DNA of 64,000 nucleotides. Origin: a virus. Its lineage: Duplodnaviria; Caudoviricetes. Positions 21,773-30,031 of the stretch are shown here, piece after piece. Each line of letters begins with the position of its first letter. Position 1 is the stretch's first letter. The stretch lies in IMG/VR virus record IMGVR_UViG_3300020577_005688, positions 64,001 to 128,000 of that record; one strand, written 5' to 3'. Position numbers and translations under genes: made by a program. The notes below the pieces were generated by a model. That model saw nothing but the letters and a program-made list of their open reading frames with translations, had not been told where the DNA came from and did no database searches.

Positions 21773-22189
21773 TTGAGCGAAGACAAGAAGGTCATTCTTG
21801 GGGAAGTTTCAAAGTACTCGAACTGCCGACCCATCAAAGAAGACCCACACATCATTGAAGCCAAGCACAAGTCCATGTGCCTCATGAGACTCCGTGCTGA
21901 GTGCCACACTTGTCCGAACAGTAAGTTCACTCTTCTTTTCGACGTTCCAGAGAAGCGTTTGGAACAAGTGATGTGCCCTCGTTGGAAAGACGTAAGAGAG
22001 TTGTGGCAGGGAAAGAACCCAGAGTCCTACGTTGTAACGGAGCTTGCGACCTGCAAAGAGAGACCATTCCCATTCTGCGGCTCGTGTCCATCCGTCGAAG
22101 AACTCAACGACCTTGGAATCGACAAGACGAAGGATGGGTGGTTATCGAGATGGAAGCGCTTCAGAGATGAAGATGCATTGGAGGAATGA
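21773..22189 (+). CDS. Cys-rich hypothetical protein
   Basis: C...C...CHTC...C...C...CGSC. Confidence 0.6.
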   Translation: MSEDKKVILGEVSKYSNCRPIKEDPHIIEAKHKSMCLMRLRAECHTCPNSKFTLLFDVPEKRLEQVMCPRWKDVRELWQGKNPESYVVTELATCKERPFPFCGSCPSVEELNDLGIDKTKDGWLSRWKRFRDEDALEE

Positions 22190-22509
22190 TGGACGACTCA
22201 CTCTTGTGGGAGTGCAACGAGACTGAACTCCTGCATCTTGCTTATGAGCAGGGCCTCGGACGGTTGAAAGTGGGCCTCCCAAAGGAGACTCTCTTTCAAA
22301 TCGTCCGTGGTGAAATCAACCCATCACCAGAGCACCTCTCGGAAACGAAGAACACGAGGGAGTTGCTTGAGAAGTTCATCGAGCGCCACTGGGAGAAGAC
22401 CCGTAGCCAACTTCCTGGGTGCAATGGAAAATGTACTTCTTATCCTTGCTCTGATGGACGTCATGGGGCATGTTACGCGCCCAACAAACACCTCGTGAGT
22501 CTCGGATGA
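22186..22509 (+). CDS. Hypothetical protein, HeH-like N-terminus and Cys-rich C-terminus
   Basis: GGAGG SD; NETELLHLA..QGLG...LPKETLFQIV; GCNGKCTSYPC...C. Confidence 0.6.
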   Translation: MMDDSLLWECNETELLHLAYEQGLGRLKVGLPKETLFQIVRGEINPSPEHLSETKNTRELLEKFIERHWEKTRSQLPGCNGKCTSYPCSDGRHGACYAPNKHLVSLG

Positions 22510-22721
22510 GGGGCTACTGTCTTAGCTGTACGCGAATCGCAGACTGTAATGAAACAGATGTAGAGAAGGTGAAGTCAGACTACACGTGCCTCAGGTACGA
22601 GCCAGTCGAAGAAGCGGTGTTTCGTGCGAGAGAGTTCACCATCGCAAAGTACGGAGACTCTCTCGCAATTCAGGCCATGCTGAATCGGCCATTACTCTCC
22701 AAAGGAGAAGATGATGAGTGA
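22506..22721 (+). CDS. Small Cys-rich protein
   Basis: ATGA overlap; MRGYCLSCTRIADC...C. Confidence 0.6.
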   Translation: MRGYCLSCTRIADCNETDVEKVKSDYTCLRYEPVEEAVFRAREFTIAKYGDSLAIQAMLNRPLLSKGEDDE

Positions 22722-23772
22722 GGGCATTAAGCTTCCTCCCGAGACTACGGGTCAAAAGTACTCGGAAAGGGAGCAAGCGTTCAAGAACTGTACGTTCTTT
22801 ACGCTTCGAAAAGTTGCAACGGAAGGTCTGAAGATCGACACGGGTCAGACCATCTACGTAAACGCGGACGGGAAACCGTTCTGCGACTACAACGACACCA
22901 TCCGTGACCGCAATCTCGTTCGACAGAGGATCCTCGACTACGAGCTTGCCCAAGGTTGGATTGTCGATGACCGTGGGGCACAACAAGCTGTTGCTCAAAT
23001 CGTCCAACCCGTTCCTCAACCCGCTGTTCCTGTGCAGGAGACCATGTCAACTGTTCCAACTGTTCCCATCGCTGCTGCAATGATGACCATCAACTCCGCA
23101 CCGGCTCCTACTCCACAGCCTCAACCGCAGCCACCTCCTGCAAGCGATGCCGGAGCTCCCACTGGAAAGAAGCGCCCCGGACCTCGTCTTCCTTCTGCAG
23201 TTGCCCCTCCGACAACGGCAGTCGCACAACCACAACCGCCTCCAGGAGCAATGACGGTTCACGCACCCGTCGTCACTCCCGCCCCTGTTCAGGCAACTGC
23301 CACGATGACACCAACCATCATCGTGCCGGAGCAGACCCAAGTGCAGCCGTTCACTCCTCCCACTGCGATGCCAGCTCCTGTCTCAGTGAGGCCGTTCACT
23401 GTTCCTGCCGCCCCAGTTGCACAGGCTCCAGTGGCCGCCCCAGCCGCTCCTGCGGGTTCCGACAAGAAGCTGGACGCCATCGGAAGTGGTCTCGAAATCA
23501 TCTCAAGGGATGTCGAGTCACACCGGAAGGACTTCTCCCAGTTCGTCAGCAACATGTCGGAGCAGGTCAACACCAACAACAAGAGCATCAAGGCACATGA
23601 TGAGGCCCTGAAGGAAATCCAGAGAAGCCTCGATATTGTGTTGACTGCGATTCACCACATCTACCTCACCATTCCTGGACTCCAGGCTGGGGCAGTTGAG
23701 GCGAAGGCCAACATCGGAACAGCTCCTGAGTTCCGAGAGTACATCGCGAAGTTCACTGTTCCGCGCCCTTAA
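22711..23772 (+). CDS. Pro/Ala/Gln-rich protein with C-terminal coiled coil; probable -1 frameshift extension to 24005
   Basis: AGGAG SD; long disordered linker; ends CGC CCT TAA. Confidence 0.7.
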   Translation: MMSEGIKLPPETTGQKYSEREQAFKNCTFFTLRKVATEGLKIDTGQTIYVNADGKPFCDYNDTIRDRNLVRQRILDYELAQGWIVDDRGAQQAVAQIVQPVPQPAVPVQETMSTVPTVPIAAAMMTINSAPAPTPQPQPQPPPASDAGAPTGKKRPGPRLPSAVAPPTTAVAQPQPPPGAMTVHAPVVTPAPVQATATMTPTIIVPEQTQVQPFTPPTAMPAPVSVRPFTVPAAPVAQAPVAAPAAPAGSDKKLDAIGSGLEIISRDVESHRKDFSQFVSNMSEQVNTNNKSIKAHDEALKEIQRSLDIVLTAIHHIYLTIPGLQAGAVEAKANIGTAPEFREYIAKFTVPRP

Positions 23773-24005
23773 GTGGGACGCAGCAACAGCCTCAGCAGGA
23801 GCCAACAGTTCCTGCTGGACTGCGTCCAAACACTCAACAACCAACAACCTTGTTGGAAGTTGCGGCTGAGGATTTGTGGAAACTGACGAATGCCCAGCTC
23901 ATCGAGTTTGCTGAGATGGCGCTGGGGATTCTCATCAAGCCAGATGAAGAGCGTTCCACCATCATGAGGAAGCTCGTGAACGCAGCATCTGGGATTCGAA
24001 AGTAG
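23766..24005 (+). CDS. Putative -1 frameshift extension (78 aa, HeH/Rho-N-like domain)
   Basis: Open -1 frame CCC TTA AGT...AAG TAG with no SD-supported start of its own; a terminator follows its stop. Confidence 0.55.
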   Translation, partial: PLSGTQQQPQQEPTVPAGLRPNTQQPTTLLEVAAEDLWKLTNAQLIEFAEMALGILIKPDEERSTIMRKLVNAASGIRK

Positions 24006-24007
24006 AG

Positions 24008-24042
24008 GAAAGGGCCTCGGTTCAATGAGGCCCTTTCTTTTT
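24008..24042 (+). terminator. Intrinsic terminator between convergent blocks
   Basis: GAAAGGGCCTC pairs with GAGGCCCTTTC, followed by TTTTT. Confidence 0.8.
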
Positions 24043-24298
24043 AGCTTTCATCCTCATGACCAAAGAGCCATTTCGGAAGACCGGTGTCGTTGATGCCGCG
24101 TACGACAACCTTACGACCAGTGACAGTGTCCTGCAGAAGGATCTCAAGAGGCGTGATATCGACCACGGTCGTCGTGTGGTTCGATAGAACTGTTCTCTCC
24201 ATATGCGTCAACAACTGCTGCGAATCCGCCCAGTAGATGACCAACGTGGCGAGTTTCTCCTGATTCCCAACCCCTAGCAACCGCTCCTTGATTCCCAT
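24041..24298 (-). CDS. Hypothetical protein
   Basis: 85 aa; AAGGAG SD upstream. Confidence 0.6.
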   Translation of the reverse strand: MGIKERLLGVGNQEKLATLVIYWADSQQLLTHMERTVLSNHTTTVVDITPLEILLQDTVTGRKVVVRGINDTGLPKWLFGHEDES

Positions 24299-24349
24299 AG
24301 AAGAACTCCTTCCACAGAGCCAAAGAGCTCTCTGCGATGTCGTACGAGT

Positions 24350-24649
24350 TTAGTATCCAGAGGGAATTCCACCATCAGAAGGACCACAACGAATCCAGGC
24401 CTCCTTCGCATAACGACGAAGTGCTCTTGTGTTTCTTTCAAGAGCACTCCCGGCACTGGAATCGAGACAGTAAGCGAACTCCAGAGGGCAGTTCGCTTCA
24501 CTGTCATTTACCGCTTCGAAGCTCGGAGGCGGCTCCGTCAGACAGTTCTCACGTGGAGGAAGAATTACTTCCTTCCGACACAGTGAACAGCTTACGAAGA
24601 CGAGAGCGGACGACAGCAGGATCGCGACATGACTCAAGGTCTTTCTCAA
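24350..24649 (-). CDS. Putative o-spanin lipoprotein
   Basis: Basic N-terminus, hydrophobic stretch, lipobox-like LVFVSC, Pro/Cys-rich; overlaps the 3' end of the i-spanin in another frame. Confidence 0.6.
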   Translation of the reverse strand: MRKTLSHVAILLSSALVFVSCSLCRKEVILPPRENCLTEPPPSFEAVNDSEANCPLEFAYCLDSSAGSALERNTRALRRYAKEAWIRCGPSDGGIPSGY

Positions 24650-24872
24650 GGGTTTCGATCTCCTTTTTTAGCTCTGAGATCAAACTCTCGCGTCTTCCAA
24701 CCTCTCCGTCAAGTTTTGCCTGGATGTCGCCCTTCTCTTTGATGAGCTCTTTCTTTTCTGTCGTGAGAGAGCCGATCTCAGCCTTCTGAATTTTCACCTT
24801 CGAAACCATGGAGGCAGCAATCACACCTGCAATCGCTGCCAACACGGTCATGCCAAGAGCGAAGTAGAGCAT
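24549..24872 (-). CDS. Putative i-spanin
   Basis: Single N-terminal TM helix followed by a coiled coil with one Cys. Confidence 0.6.
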   Translation of the reverse strand: MLYFALGMTVLAAIAGVIAASMVSKVKIQKAEIGSLTTEKKELIKEKGDIQAKLDGEVGRRESLISELKKEIETLEKDLESCRDPAVVRSRLRKLFTVSEGSNSSST

Positions 24873-25483
24873 TAGGACACCGGCTTTGCCTCTTCAGGCT
24901 TTGGCTCAGCAGCCTTCTTCTCCTTAGCCGCCTTAATCCAATCATTGATGTCCTTCACGAGGCCCCAGAGAGCGGCTGCGGTGAGTGACACAGAAAGGAT
25001 TGGCTTCAGGAGAGCCCACGTAATTTTCTCTCCAGCCAGAAGCGAGAGACCAACTCCAGCACCAGTCGAGGTGAGGAAGTTCATCAACCAACCACCCGGC
25101 TTAGTATCCAAGAGGAACCAAAGAGGCTTATCGAGAGGACTCGTGTCTGGGAGGAAGTCGTGGAGACGCTTTCCGAAGACCTTGAGGAGGGCAACAATCA
25201 AGACGAGAAGAGCGGCTGCAGCTGCAACCCAGTCACCTGCCTTGACTGCATCGACAATCACTTTTACGAATACCATGGGATTGTCGAGAGTAGCTGGATT
25301 GATGACAGGAGCAGTTGGAACTCCGGCATCGACAACAACCCCAGCATCCACGATGTCATCAAGAACAACGGTCACGACACCGGCGTCAATCACGCCACCA
25401 GAGGACTCGATGACAACTCCAGAGTCTTCTGACGCAAAAGAGGCAGTTGAAATAAATGCACTGATAAAAAGATACCTGAACAT
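24872..25483 (-). CDS. Multi-pass membrane protein (holin-like) with signal peptide and DAG repeats
   Basis: About 3 hydrophobic segments, basic C-tail, next to the spanins; IDAG/VDAG x3. Confidence 0.5.
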   Translation of the reverse strand: MFRYLFISAFISTASFASEDSGVVIESSGGVIDAGVVTVVLDDIVDAGVVVDAGVPTAPVINPATLDNPMVFVKVIVDAVKAGDWVAAAAALLVLIVALLKVFGKRLHDFLPDTSPLDKPLWFLLDTKPGGWLMNFLTSTGAGVGLSLLAGEKITWALLKPILSVSLTAAALWGLVKDINDWIKAAKEKKAAEPKPEEAKPVS

Positions 25484-25495
25484 GACAATCTCCTT

Positions 25496-28400
25496 TTATG
25501 GAACGCTGTATGGTGCGGTTGTGGAGGCGATCTTAAAGGATGAGCCTTCGTAAGGGGAGCTATTTGCCTCCCAAGCCCCCGATGACCTCCTAAGAGTGTT
25601 TCCAGACCCCGCAATTTCGAGGGAGGACTCGAATCTCCAGTAGTGGTAAAAGATATCCTCAACAGGCGGTCCGATGAATGACTTGTTGTTTGGAATGATG
25701 CAGTGATTTGAAGAGATCGTAAAGTAGTCGTGATTACCAGAGGCCCCTCTTACACATGCATATCTGAAAGTCCCTCCAATCGCTGGGGCGCTTGCAAGAT
25801 CTTTGATCTCAATTCGATTTCCAACAATGTTAGCCCCATTCATGGATCCGAGAAAGACGATCCCATTTGCCATAGTGGCTACCCCTGAAACAGTGAGGTC
25901 TCCGACGAGGATAGCATTATTGCAAATGTGAAATGAGTTTCCGGTGTTAGATCCGTAATTGAAGAACTGAATTCCTGGGATGTCACGGGCGGTTCTAATT
26001 CGATTACCCTGAATTGAGAACCGCAGAGAGCTAGTATCTCCAGTAAAGTCGATTCCACCGTCGATGACGTTTCCATCCACAACCGCACGTTGGAGGAATA
26101 CAAAAGTCAAACGATTTGAGATCCTACAGGAAGACACTTGAGCATTGTTCGAAGTAATGGAAGTCCCAGAAGAAGAACTCAGAGAACAACCCGAGAGATT
26201 GACCTCACCTGCATTCGAGATCGTGAACTGACCTTCGAAGGAACATCCAGAGATGTTGAGGTAGTTCCCCGCAACTCCGGAAGACCCGAGAAGAGTGGTG
26301 CCGTTGACCTTCGACCCATCCATCACAAGTCGTCTATCGTGGATGCCATCAATCGAGAGGTTACCACCGATGTTGTTTCCAACAAACTGAATGTCTCCTC
26401 GAACTGTTGTGAAGGTAGAGTTCCCCCCAACTTGATTATTAGAGAACGTGAAATTGACGTCAGAGCCAGATGAGCTTGAGACGTTAAAGACACCAGAAGA
26501 AAAGTTCGAGTCTACCAAAGAAGGAACAGTGTACTCAGTAACGAGATACGAAAACGTAGCTCCCTCTGAGTGGTTACCTCTCACGATACCTGGCCCGTAA
26601 TTCGCGCTCAGAGTCTGGGCTCCTCCCGTCCCGTTCCAGTAGAAGCGGTTTCCCTCAACACGACCCCAAATACGGTCAATGAGAGAAGCCGCTCCTACCG
26701 CTGTCGTAGAGACAAATTCATTTCCAAGCCAAGCCATCCCAGTGCTTGAGGAGACTCCTCCACCGTTGTGAACCGGCTTTCCGAATGAAGAGATTCGGTT
26801 ATTCGAAATAGTGCAGTTTGAGTTGTCTCCGAACTGGATGCCCTTCCAAGACTTGGTTCCGAAGATGGACCTAAGGTCAACCGTGTTCGAGTTTACGACT
26901 GCTCCATTGCAACCGGAAAGGTAGATGCCGGTCATGTCCTGATTGGAGGCATCTGTTCCTCCGTCAGTTACAACGAGATTCTCAGAGCAGGTGACAGTGG
27001 ATGCAGACCCAAGTCGAATACCAAATCCAGAGGTGTTTGCCAGATCTGGATTTCCCATGAAGATCTGATTTCCAATGATGGTCAGTTGATCTGTAGTCCC
27101 TCCAAGGTCAGGAGTGATCCCATGGTAAGTTCCAAAAACGCCCCCAGAGATGCTGATAGCGTTTGAGAGAACCTCCACAAAGGTCGCTCCATCTCCAGTC
27201 TGGATGGCCGCGAAGAATCCGCCAGAAGTGTTAGCAGTGGAGTTTGTGAGGGCCGCAATCTGAATACGGTTGTTGGAGATGACAAGGAACGAAGTTGAGA
27301 GGGCGTTTCGAATCCCAACGTAGTACCCACCAGAGAGTGAGTTTCCTTCGATTCTACCACTGTCTCCAATTGGACGAATACCAGAGCCGGAGAACCCGGC
27401 AGCTGCAATGTCCTGCTGACTCAGAGTACAGCCTCGAACGACATTGGCGGTAACAGCGTAGTTGTTGAGAGGAGTGGTTGTGGTGAATGTACTGTTCTCA
27501 ACAACAGAAAGAACACCAAGGCTCAGAGCAACCGGAATGGTTCCAGAGGTCATGGTGAAATTACTCACCAATGTCCTCGCAGACGGGGCATTGACCAGAT
27601 AGCAAACATTGGTCGAGGGAGTCGAACCATTCGCCCAAGTCACATCACGGATAACGATGTGGGACGAGACGTTGGAAGCGATCAGGAATGAGTGACCTCC
27701 AGTCCATGCGGTGCTGCCGCCCCAAGAGCTAAGGAACCTGCAGTTCGACATGTAGAAAGTCGAACCGTTCCAGTTGTTAGGGCCAAGAGCACTGTAAACA
27801 AATCGAGGTGCAGCAGCTCCGGCACCTGCATAGGAGAAGGTCGAGTTCTCAACGCGGACCGTTGGGATTCCAGTGCCTGCCCCTCCAGTACAAGAAGACA
27901 GTCCTCTTGTGATGAAGGAGCAATCCTCGACAATAAGCTCTGAGACTGGCGCTTCGAATACGTCGTGAGCAACGACAGTTTCAAAAGAGCCAGTTGTCTG
28001 GATGAGGTTCTTGAGCTTGATTCTATCGACGGTGTTCCCAAGACCAGAAGAGTTGATAAATGACGACAGTCCGATCGGTGCTCCGAGACGGAGGTCTCGA
28101 ATCTCCAAGAACTTCACGTTGAACTCAAGACCAGTAATCAACGTCCCAAGGTCAATTGACACCTTTTCGTTGATGCCTCGAATGGTCAACCCAACCGTTG
28201 TAAACCTTGCGACTGGGGTGGACCCAGCCCAGGTGTTACTGACGAGGATGACCTCGAAGTGTGGGAAAGACCCACTGAGAGTAGTCGTCTCACCTGCATA
28301 GTTCGCTGAGATGTTTGAGATGAAGCTGGCGACTGCAGGAAGGTTTGCGAACTGACCACCCTCTCCAACAGTCAGAGGGATTGCTTTCTCTGCCCTCATT

Positions 28401-30031
28401 CGAATGTTTGGAATGACATTCGTGATTGCCCCAGCACTCAAATCAACGACCGCGATTTGGTGTCCCTTGTTGGTTGTTGCAACCGAGTCGAGGACGTTCG
28501 CGAATGCGGACACCGATGTTGAGATGGCGTAGTTCGCCGTGGCCTCATCCCAGTAGAGATAGTTACGAGCATTGTTGGTAAATGCTCCTGGGGTGAACGT
28601 TCGAGCTGGGAGAGTGAAAACCTTGCCGTTCCAACGGATCTTGCCTTCCGTAACAGCCACATCAGCACCGGAAGGAGAGGCAAGGAGACCACTGATGGTC
28701 CAGTTCTCTACGAGGTCTTCATCTGAGACAAGTCCCGAAGTGAGAGTCGAAACAGAAGAAGCAAAGTCCGCAGGCTGTAGGTCGCGGAGAGACTTTGGAA
28801 CTGCACAAACAGCAGTGTAGGTTCCATTGACCGGCAGTGGAGGATTTACGACCAGCTGGACCTGCGAACTAAACAGACCGCTGTAGACAGTAATGTTACC
28901 CCACGACTCGACAGGGGACTTTGTGCTGTTGAGCTCGACCAGCGGCTGTACCTCAGTCGTTGGAGTCGCTCCAACAGCCGTAACTTGCGCCGCCGTCATT
29001 GGACGGAGAACGAGTGTGGTGTTGCTGATGACTTGCTCAACAATCCACTTGTCACCGTTGTTAGAAGTCGGAGAAGTGTTCGTCGCACCAGTGATCTCTG
29101 CAAAGTCTCCTGGAACAACATCAGAGAAGTTGGCAGCAGAGCATTGAACAACTCGTCCGTTCTCAATACTGGTGATGACCGCAGATGTAACCTTATCGAT
29201 GGTCGTGTTCAGAACAGAGCCAGAAGAACCTCCACCAGACCAAGCCGTAGCCGCTGCAAAAGGAGGAAGACCTGCTGGAGAGCCACGAACAACACCAACA
29301 ACTCGGCTCTGCGCGAGCTGACCGGAGGAATCGATAATCTGAAAGAACCGTGCGAGTTCTTCTTTTGTCGGGTTCGCTCCAGAGAAGAAAGCTGGACCTC
29401 CAATGAACACTCTCTGAGAAGCGGTCAGCGTCAGGAGTCTTCTATCTGATGTCGTAAAGGAGACCGGCTTCAGAACAACGAAGTCCTTCATGTCATCCGC
29501 AAACAAGACGTCCGTGTTTGCTGAGACTCTTGCGAGAGCTCTATTGAGCGTTTCTGTGTTCAGGTTCTCAGAAGGATTTGGGAATGCAACCCCAAAAGGG
29601 TTACCAAGACGAGCTTCTGGAGAAGACGGAATGTCTCCACCTGTCGCACGAAGCGCCCCAAGAGTGACATTGAATCCGAGAGCAGTGGAGGCAGTACCAC
29701 CTGTCACTTCGACAGAGGATAGAGTGCCGCTCGTTGTGGAACGAATCGCGATGACTCCATCTGCATCGAAGGCAGAACCCGCGCTACCGATGGCAGTATT
29801 GATGTCACTGATGACCGTATTGATTCCATTCCCTGTCAGAGTGACAACGAATGGAGAACCATCAATCGTGACGTTGAGTGTCTGAGCAGCTGCTGCAGCC
29901 GAGAAGTACGGAACAGCGCTCACACCATCGGCGTTTGCCCGACGAACAGAACCACGAAGAACCGCGTTGGTGGTCTTTGAGATGTTCTTTCCAGCAATCT
30001 GCGGCCTACGGAAATAGTCCATTGATGGCAT
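25496..30031 (-). CDS. Tail fibre/tailspike with right-handed beta-helix
   Basis: 1511 aa; C-terminal half has many I.GN.I / I.NN.I parallel beta-helix repeats. Confidence 0.75.
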   Translation of the reverse strand: MPSMDYFRRPQIAGKNISKTTNAVLRGSVRRANADGVSAVPYFSAAAAAQTLNVTIDGSPFVVTLTGNGINTVISDINTAIGSAGSAFDADGVIAIRSTTSGTLSSVEVTGGTASTALGFNVTLGALRATGGDIPSSPEARLGNPFGVAFPNPSENLNTETLNRALARVSANTDVLFADDMKDFVVLKPVSFTTSDRRLLTLTASQRVFIGGPAFFSGANPTKEELARFFQIIDSSGQLAQSRVVGVVRGSPAGLPPFAAATAWSGGGSSGSVLNTTIDKVTSAVITSIENGRVVQCSAANFSDVVPGDFAEITGATNTSPTSNNGDKWIVEQVISNTTLVLRPMTAAQVTAVGATPTTEVQPLVELNSTKSPVESWGNITVYSGLFSSQVQLVVNPPLPVNGTYTAVCAVPKSLRDLQPADFASSVSTLTSGLVSDEDLVENWTISGLLASPSGADVAVTEGKIRWNGKVFTLPARTFTPGAFTNNARNYLYWDEATANYAISTSVSAFANVLDSVATTNKGHQIAVVDLSAGAITNVIPNIRMRAEKAIPLTVGEGGQFANLPAVASFISNISANYAGETTTLSGSFPHFEVILVSNTWAGSTPVARFTTVGLTIRGINEKVSIDLGTLITGLEFNVKFLEIRDLRLGAPIGLSSFINSSGLGNTVDRIKLKNLIQTTGSFETVVAHDVFEAPVSELIVEDCSFITRGLSSCTGGAGTGIPTVRVENSTFSYAGAGAAAPRFVYSALGPNNWNGSTFYMSNCRFLSSWGGSTAWTGGHSFLIASNVSSHIVIRDVTWANGSTPSTNVCYLVNAPSARTLVSNFTMTSGTIPVALSLGVLSVVENSTFTTTTPLNNYAVTANVVRGCTLSQQDIAAAGFSGSGIRPIGDSGRIEGNSLSGGYYVGIRNALSTSFLVISNNRIQIAALTNSTANTSGGFFAAIQTGDGATFVEVLSNAISISGGVFGTYHGITPDLGGTTDQLTIIGNQIFMGNPDLANTSGFGIRLGSASTVTCSENLVVTDGGTDASNQDMTGIYLSGCNGAVVNSNTVDLRSIFGTKSWKGIQFGDNSNCTISNNRISSFGKPVHNGGGVSSSTGMAWLGNEFVSTTAVGAASLIDRIWGRVEGNRFYWNGTGGAQTLSANYGPGIVRGNHSEGATFSYLVTEYTVPSLVDSNFSSGVFNVSSSSGSDVNFTFSNNQVGGNSTFTTVRGDIQFVGNNIGGNLSIDGIHDRRLVMDGSKVNGTTLLGSSGVAGNYLNISGCSFEGQFTISNAGEVNLSGCSLSSSSGTSITSNNAQVSSCRISNRLTFVFLQRAVVDGNVIDGGIDFTGDTSSLRFSIQGNRIRTARDIPGIQFFNYGSNTGNSFHICNNAILVGDLTVSGVATMANGIVFLGSMNGANIVGNRIEIKDLASAPAIGGTFRYACVRGASGNHDYFTISSNHCIIPNNKSFIGPPVEDIFYHYWRFESSLEIAGSGNTLRRSSGAWEANSSPYEGSSFKIASTTAPYSVP

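Follow-up and report, generated by a model that had tools for sequence, protein, structure and literature searches.

Does the last gene of a phage replication operon end at its stop codon, or is a second, longer product made by a change of reading frame just before it? The question is raised by a stretch of 64,000 nucleotides (nt), referred to here as the window, that corresponds to positions 64,001 to 128,000 of IMG/VR virus record IMGVR_UViG_3300020577_005688 (Duplodnaviria; Caudoviricetes), a 141-kb record with a completeness estimate of 75%. In the window, a gene designated here the parent gene ends with CGC (23764-66), CCT (23767-69) and TAA (23770-72), and the -1 frame is open beyond this stop for 78 codons, to 24005. 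The original prediction, made from the window alone, had described this arrangement and proposed that a -1 slip onto the overlapping CCC appends a helix-extension-helix (HeH) domain. The arrangement is present as described, and comparison with related loci indicates that a programmed -1 ribosomal frameshift at C_CCU very probably adds a small domain to the parent protein. Positions of the features are collected in Table 1.

Table 1. Features of the parent gene, the junction and the -1 frame extension, numbered from the first nucleotide of the window.
Feature	Position	Strand	Details
Parent gene, 353 amino acids (aa)	22711..23772	+	0 frame; homologues and structure model m6a672b4d93ce
Shift site C_CCU	23766..23769	+	Pro-tRNA would re-pair from CCU to the overlapping CCC; CCCY invariant in 17/17 loci
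0-frame stop TAA	23770..23772	+	Inside the spacer between shift site and hairpin
-1 frame extension open reading frame (ORF)	23766..24005	+	CCC, 78 codons and TAG (24003-24005)
Two-tier hairpin	23776..23827	+	Outer stem 23776-23783/23820-23827; inner stem 23792-23802/23808-23818
R-P-N-T codons	23823..23834	+	Near-invariant motif; CGT-CC doubles as the outer stem's 3′ arm
Small three-helix domain, extension residues 31-78	23859..24002	+	Predicted HeH type, like Rho-N/SAP/LEM; model m54797048130e
Terminator-like stem-loop and T-run	24008..24042 (stem-loop 24008-24037)	.	Stem of 11 base pairs, 7 of them G-C; 3 nt past the TAG

Conservation of the junction and translation of the -1 frame

Read from the CCC at 23766-68, the extension consists of Pro followed by 78 codons beginning L-S-G-T-Q-Q-Q, and the predicted trans-frame product is ~431 aa long with the junction ...V-P-R-P-L-S-G-T.... 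The -1 frame is closed upstream by a TGA (23727-23729) located 39 nt before CCC, and its first start-type codon is a TTG at 23850 that is not preceded by a Shine-Dalgarno (SD) sequence; both points had been anticipated. A -1 frame open over 78 codons would arise by chance at roughly 2% of gene ends, but chance does not account for this one because it is conserved in all 17 related loci. These 17 loci represent ~12 distinct lineages with parent identities of ~30-99%; a further locus, L020, was discarded as a spurious pattern match.

Each of the 17 has a parent-like gene with the small domain in its -1 frame, and that frame continues uninterrupted past the stop of the gene. DNA of the close clade (L002-L010) keeps GCGCCCT followed by TAA, TAG or TGA, and the -1 ORF is conserved from the first codon after CCC. 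The distant relatives with DNA available (L014-L019 and L021-L024) have the same -1 arrangement, and their parent-like genes predict proteins that share an N-terminal domain, a Pro-rich linker with a basic patch, and a long helix.

An alignment of the junctions reveals the same order in every lineage, namely NNC-CCY, 5-6 nt, and a stem beginning GGG(A/G)C. The codon before Pro ends in C throughout though the amino acid differs (Arg CGC, Leu CUC, Val GUC, Thr ACC, Pro CCC or Asn AAC), and the third base of the Pro codon is always U or C. As these bases are retained despite the change in amino acid, the pattern indicates that selection acts on the nucleotides and not on the protein. In L006-L008, any change of frame would have to fall within a 5-codon stretch bounded by stops in the two frames, and C_CCU is the only Z_ZZN sequence there. 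The stop is found inside the spacer in every lineage, directly after CCY in the window clade and L019, and one codon later in L014-L018 and L021-L024. Adjacency of the stop is therefore not the conserved feature, and the proposal that stop-adjacent overlapping Pro codons form the shift site holds for the window clade and L019 but not for the other lineages. The conserved CCCT, stop and -1 ORF that had been suggested for homologues are seen as C_CCY, a stop that varies in type, and a conserved -1 ORF.

The two-tier hairpin, which did not form part of the original prediction, is the most conserved signal of the cassette. In the window it has a folding free energy of -32.8 kcal/mol (z -3.96) and begins 6 nt after CCU, and the hairpins of eight other lineages range from -32 to -54 kcal/mol (z -3.05 to -5.77) with a spacer of 5-6 nt in all lineages. 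RNAalifold finds 19 consensus pairs in the close clade, 6 of them compensatory; sliding the 3′ partners lowers the share of alignment cells that pair from 95.5% to 22-45%, and the observed covariation exceeds that of all 500 shuffles. With a covariance model of the close clade, the hairpin is also located at the junctions of L017, L015, L019, L014 and L016. Twelve sequences aligned to this model, an alignment thereby biased towards the structure, have paired bases in 95.3% of cells and double changes at 13 of the 19 pairs; slid controls over both alignments give 22-58% pairing. Although the architecture is the same in L014, L015, L016 and L018, their inner stems are unrelated in sequence and in the peptides they encode. 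The 3′ arm of the outer stem consists of the Arg-(Arg)-Pro codons of the RRPNT motif. No T-run follows this hairpin, and a separate terminator is located downstream (Table 1). A pseudoknot between the internal loop and downstream sequence was rejected by eye, loop sequences not being conserved between lineages. An SD-like AGGAG is present in the 5′ arm of the inner stem at 23795-23799 of the window and at the equivalent positions of L007 and L017, and is absent from L015.

Protein-level constraint on the -1 frame extends upstream of any possible start. Between the stop and the residues L-L-E-V, pairwise differences within the window clade number 63, 62 and 109 at -1-frame codon positions 1, 2 and 3, and the corresponding numbers for the domain are 71, 45 and 260; every indel in the extension is a multiple of 3. 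Variation in the RPNT codons for Pro, Asn and Thr is limited to third positions throughout the lineages (CCA/CCG/CCC, AAC/AAU and ACU/ACG/ACA/ACC), and the Asn and Thr codons lie outside the stem. As variation is only synonymous, RPNT must be translated in the -1 frame. However, no ATG, GTG or TTG is found in this frame before RPNT in the window, L003, L006, L007, L008 or L010, and translation is therefore expected to enter from the parent frame. Candidate starts in the other loci lack an SD sequence except for one GTG that is buried in the stem of L018, and a census of start codons found no conserved start with a ribosome-binding site that could serve an independent small gene. In L002 (4050-4289) the stop is TGA, which makes the junction CCC TTG A... 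and so creates a TTG where the 79-aa ORF of the gene caller begins; no other locus has a start codon at this point.

The window clade has an open +1 frame as well, which runs for ~34 codons past the stop (23773-23874 in the window). No conserved protein is encoded there, and the open frame is probably a side effect of the combined constraints of the hairpin and the -1 frame.

Alternative explanations

Public annotation treats the extension as a separate small gene. The call for this genome is a 50-aa ORF (P0029), and a profile search recovered 29 domain clusters of 42-105 aa. A product of ~50 aa starting at TTG 23850/23853, or at other internal starts elsewhere, would be an HeH protein that keeps all three predicted helices, and the open frame upstream would be incidental; the second TTG, in the L-L-E-V codons, is retained in six window-clade sequences. 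The TTG has no SD sequence, however, and the linker and near-invariant RPNT upstream of it evolve as -1-frame coding sequence in which six loci have no start. The synonymous variation of the RPNT codons likewise argues against TTG 23850 as the real start, which the original prediction had raised as a possibility. The called starts fall at non-homologous positions in different lineages, an inconsistency that is accounted for if there is no real start in the -1 frame. A separate gene also fails to explain why CCCY is invariant, why the phase is -1 in 17/17 loci and why a hairpin follows CCCY at 5-6 nt, and we consider it improbable.

Coupling to termination would require no frameshift either. 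A ribosome that stops at the TAA would open the hairpin and begin again in the -1 frame, at a non-canonical codon within or beyond the hairpin, and the stop does lie at the foot of the hairpin in all lineages. Several lineages have an SD-like AGGAG or GGGAGG inside the inner stem, and in the L018/L019/L021/L024 clade an ATG is found just before GRRPNT in the 3′ arm. Against this, no start or near-cognate codon is conserved at a homologous position and the window clade has none before RPNT, the internal SD-like sequence is missing in L015 and weak in L014, and in the L018 clade a C/U-rich tract takes the place of an SD sequence before the ATG. Since reinitiation neither needs nor explains the invariant CCCY or the C-ending codon before it, it seems very improbable. 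It is more improbable still that the hairpin is primarily an RNase III site, an mRNA stabiliser or an attenuator, with C_CCY and the frame layout as by-products and the domain made rarely or never. A conserved, stable hairpin located where an operon gene ends can act in processing or stability, but the domain is under purifying selection, as seen in the differences by codon position and in ~30 conserved clusters, and must be translated, and the missing T-run and the separate terminator also speak against this explanation.

Homopolymer errors do occur in single metagenomic assemblies, and a comparable picture could come from a single fused gene that carries an indel from assembly or sequencing, or that has recently become a pseudogene through loss of 1 nt. 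The same phase change is seen in 17 independent assemblies drawn from separate samples and sources (IMG/VR, JGI, ENA and Logan) with diverged sequences and different stops, which makes the probability of this explanation negligible. An exhaustive phmmer search of 1.8 billion representatives with the 78-aa extension found no in-frame fused form and returned only short called ORFs of 50-105 aa. A profile search of the 'longer' protein length class also found no fused form, and this search is rated as weak evidence. The plain fused or separately initiated homologues that would have argued against a frameshift were thus not encountered, there being no fused gene and no conserved separate start. 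Three further mechanisms were rejected: transcriptional slippage, as the C-run is only 3-7 bases long and its length is not conserved; a +1 frameshift, as the +1 frame has no conserved protein; and stop readthrough, as the downstream 0 frame is not conserved.

Several observations weigh against a frameshift at C_CCU, or limit what can be claimed for it. The lack of a naturally fused in-frame homologue means that none is available to prove that the fusion is the functional form, and the trans-frame protein itself is predicted by comparison of sequences. Constraints from RNA structure and protein overlap in the linker, which weakens the codon-position test in that segment. In clusters P0011, P0012, P0014, P0016, P0021 and P0023, which fall outside the DNA comparison, the called protein begins with M a few residues before RRPNT, and a true independent start is possible in some of these distant lineages. 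A G_GGA_AAC heptamer abuts C_CCC in the clade comprising L018, L019 and L021-L024 (L018:199-219; L019:2463-2480; L021-L024 near 1930-1950), making the exact slip site ambiguous there, and slippage at either site would give the same protein. Finally, the shift levels of 0.26-5.6% recorded for tetramers (PMC4066793) would suggest that the long isoform may be minor.

The overlapping heptamer and tetramer of the L018 clade could represent an evolutionary step between the two classes of site.

Predicted proteins and genomic context

The parent ORF opens with ATG ATG (22711-22716). The second ATG (22714) is probably the true start because a GGAG at ~22700 is better spaced for it, homologues start with M-S-E, and the public cluster P0001 is 352 aa long. 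Seven close clusters predict proteins of 341-353 aa that share 47-99% identity, and homologues overall are 323-357 aa. The predicted protein has an N-terminal globular domain (~5-91), a disordered linker rich in Pro, Gln and Ala (~92-249) that includes a conserved GKKRPGPR patch, and a long C-terminal helix (250-320). The predicted local distance difference test (pLDDT) score of the model is ~90 in both folded parts, with ~160 residues disordered and a helix of 70 residues. Searches of Pfam and PHROG assigned no family to the parent, the extension or the neighbouring genes, giving only weak coiled-coil matches to DUF1664 and RmuC, and the protein atlas had no usable match for the parent. Fold searches with the whole-parent model returned generic coiled coils (VIA wide) or nothing below E = 0.1 (Foldseek against BFVD and PDB).

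In the model of the extension, helices span residues 33-37, 41-52 and 62-77, and the core pLDDT is ~90. The top VIA wide match for the domain is the N-terminal helical subdomain of Rho (1a62_A residues 1-47; Z 5.6, root-mean-square deviation 1.8 Å over 47 residues), followed at Z 3-4 by the LEM domains of emerin and LAP2 and the SAP domains of Hcc-1, FAN1, PIAS1 and SLX4. Foldseek matches with low deviation were to Rho, FAN1 SAP and DEK SAP, every one with an E-value > 1. These Z-scores are within the range where small helical motifs match by chance. No Pfam match at E <= 0.1 was obtained for the window extension or any of 15 aligned members, and the domain profile had no match at E <= 10 to PDB sequences. 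The domain is predicted to have, like the Rho N-terminal subdomain, SAP and LEM, two main helices joined by an extended segment over ~45 residues, but differs from them in having no sequence-profile match to any Pfam family or PDB chain. The Rho-N/SAP/HeH relationship that had been proposed is therefore retained as a resemblance in fold, at modest Z-scores, and membership of a sequence family is not established. The ~48-residue domain, as modelled, probably binds DNA or RNA.

The parent gene is the final gene of a rightward operon, and its location in a replication block is as first reported. Upstream on the same strand are genes that predict a DnaB-like helicase, a DnaG-like primase, a family-A DNA polymerase, a RecA-like ATPase, a dTMP kinase, ThyX and RusA. 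The terminator-like stem-loop (24008-24042) closes this operon directly after the stop of the extension, a placement that was also predicted correctly, and it faces a convergent gene (24041-24298). Three small overlapping genes (21773-22189, 22186-22509 and 22470-22721), one predicting a Cys-rich 138-aa protein, separate RusA from the parent; this trio is syntenic in every relative with enough flanking sequence (L002, L003, L008, L010, L015 and L019), and none of the three products has a Pfam or PHROG match.

Small convergent genes occupy the minus strand downstream (24041-25483 and 25496-30031). They include candidate lysis or membrane proteins of 107 aa and 203 aa with hydrophobic segments, as well as a repeat-rich protein of 1511 aa that resembles a tail fibre or beta-helix. 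In both L002 and L008, synteny extends to the 85-aa, 107-aa and 203-aa genes. There are no tRNA genes in the window, and a phage tRNA-Pro cannot be invoked. Searches (tblastn) of 50,697 GenBank phage records found no match to either the parent or the extension, and a scan of genome contigs for the domain found none, hence giving no prophage or host clue.

Proposed mechanism, known systems and implications

The elements of a -1 frameshifting cassette are found together at this junction: a slippery motif in 17/17 loci, a structure 5-6 nt downstream, and a -1 ORF that is under protein selection and has no initiation signal of its own. With CCY in the A site, a spacer of 6 nt brings the hairpin up to the mRNA entrance, as in canonical -1 frameshifting. 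In the proposed mechanism, translation would end at TAA 23770 for most ribosomes, yielding a coiled-coil protein of ~352 aa. A fraction would pause as the two-tier hairpin meets the mRNA entrance 6 nt past the Pro codon CCU, the Pro-tRNA would slip from CCU to the overlapping CCC, and translation would go on in the -1 frame. The slip would append a Pro/Gln linker, the RRPNT-type motif and the HeH-like domain of ~48 residues, giving two isoforms at a fixed ratio that are likely to co-assemble via the shared long helix. An additional pause, favourable to P-site slippage, may arise in the window clade because the codon that enters the A site directly after CCU is the stop. Across the family, hairpin-stimulated tetramer slippage is more likely than a purely stop-dependent P-site slip because C_CCY and a hairpin 5-6 nt downstream are universal, whereas stop adjacency is specific to clades.

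Phage lambda G/GT (tail chaperone) and T7 gene 10A/10B (capsid) append a C-terminal extension at a fixed ratio and use the heptamers G_GGA_AAG and G_GUU_UUC, respectively. The arrangement described here is like these in that a phage gene has a -1 shift near the end of its ORF, the isoforms share an N-terminal body, the longer one has an extra module, and the arrangement is conserved across distant relatives. It differs in that lambda G/GT and 10A/10B are structural genes, whereas the parent gene belongs to an operon for replication, recombination and nucleotide metabolism, shows no similarity to either tail chaperones or capsid proteins, and has a tetramer site. Assignment to the tail assembly chaperone G/GT family is therefore not indicated, the neighbours being replication genes and the Pfam and PHROG scans giving no match. 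Bacterial dnaX (tau/gamma) is likewise a replication-associated protein with two isoforms, a -1 shift and a 3′ hairpin, but it uses A_AAA_AAG with an upstream SD sequence, and its shift truncates the product whereas the shift here would extend it; the sequences are unrelated.

The closest parallels in the site itself are tetramers. Z_ZZN is the minimal -1 site (PMC5009743), and when all 16 tetramers were measured in Escherichia coli with the IS3 pseudoknot the order was A_AAG >> U_UUC > U_UUU > C_CCU = C_CCC > A_AAA (PMC4066793). The six active tetramers shifted at 0.26-5.6% in these reporters, and C_CCA and C_CCG barely exceeded background (PMC4066793). The restriction of the third base to Y in the present family fits this pattern, as C_CCU and C_CCC shift much more than C_CCA and C_CCG (PMC4066793). 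Tetramers with a 3′ stimulator of the IS3/IS1222 type resemble the present site in having a single-tRNA site, a short spacer and a stable downstream structure (PMC4066793, PMC5009743), but there the structure is a pseudoknot and not a two-tier hairpin, the gene is a transposase gene, and a 0-frame stop within the spacer is particular to the present family. Natural tetramer sites of IS1 and IS3 elements are mostly A_AAG, U_UUY and A_AAA (PMC4066793), and the C_CCY class has so far been documented mainly in synthetic E. coli reporters.

In cps and tsh of Listeria phage PSA (CCC_UGA), likewise phage genes, a Pro-tRNA slips on a run of C located at or close to the stop, and the protein is extended at its C-terminus (PMC5009743). 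However, the PSA shift is +1 (CCC to CCU) and depends on the adjacent stop (PMC5009743), while the shift proposed here is -1 (CCU to CCC) and the adjacent stop is not conserved in the family. The junctions thus do not belong to the shifty-stop type (prfB, or CCC_UGA of PSA), since an adjacent stop is not present across lineages and the direction of the shift is also opposite (-1 as against +1).

The class of mechanism is already known; novelty lies in the gene family, in its location within a replication operon and, apparently, in the natural use of C_CCY. A limited literature search found no report of a natural C_CCY site in a phage gene. It is possible, though somewhat doubtful, that this is the first natural and deeply conserved -1 frameshift on a bare C_CCY, with a stop built into the spacer and a hairpin 3′ arm that doubles as RRP(NT) codons. 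For the study of recoding, the family provides a natural series with an invariant C_CCY, a 5-6 nt spacer, hairpins that are interchangeable in sequence, and a stop 0 or 1 codon later, in which A-site (translocation) slippage and stop-assisted P-site slippage may be compared. For annotation, ~30 clusters of arbitrarily called small ORFs (42-105 aa) are most likely the C-terminal module of a ~430-aa protein with two isoforms, encoded by large phages (~140-200 kb) that are known from metagenomes alone.

In view of the likeness of the domain to Rho's RNA-binding N-terminus, the long isoform might regulate shifting by feedback, through binding to its own hairpin. Another possible role would be to tether the coiled-coil protein of the replication operon to nucleic acid at a fixed stoichiometry. 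For the phages themselves, the family would represent a protein composed of a coiled coil and a disordered linker to which a predicted nucleic-acid-binding module is added sub-stoichiometrically.

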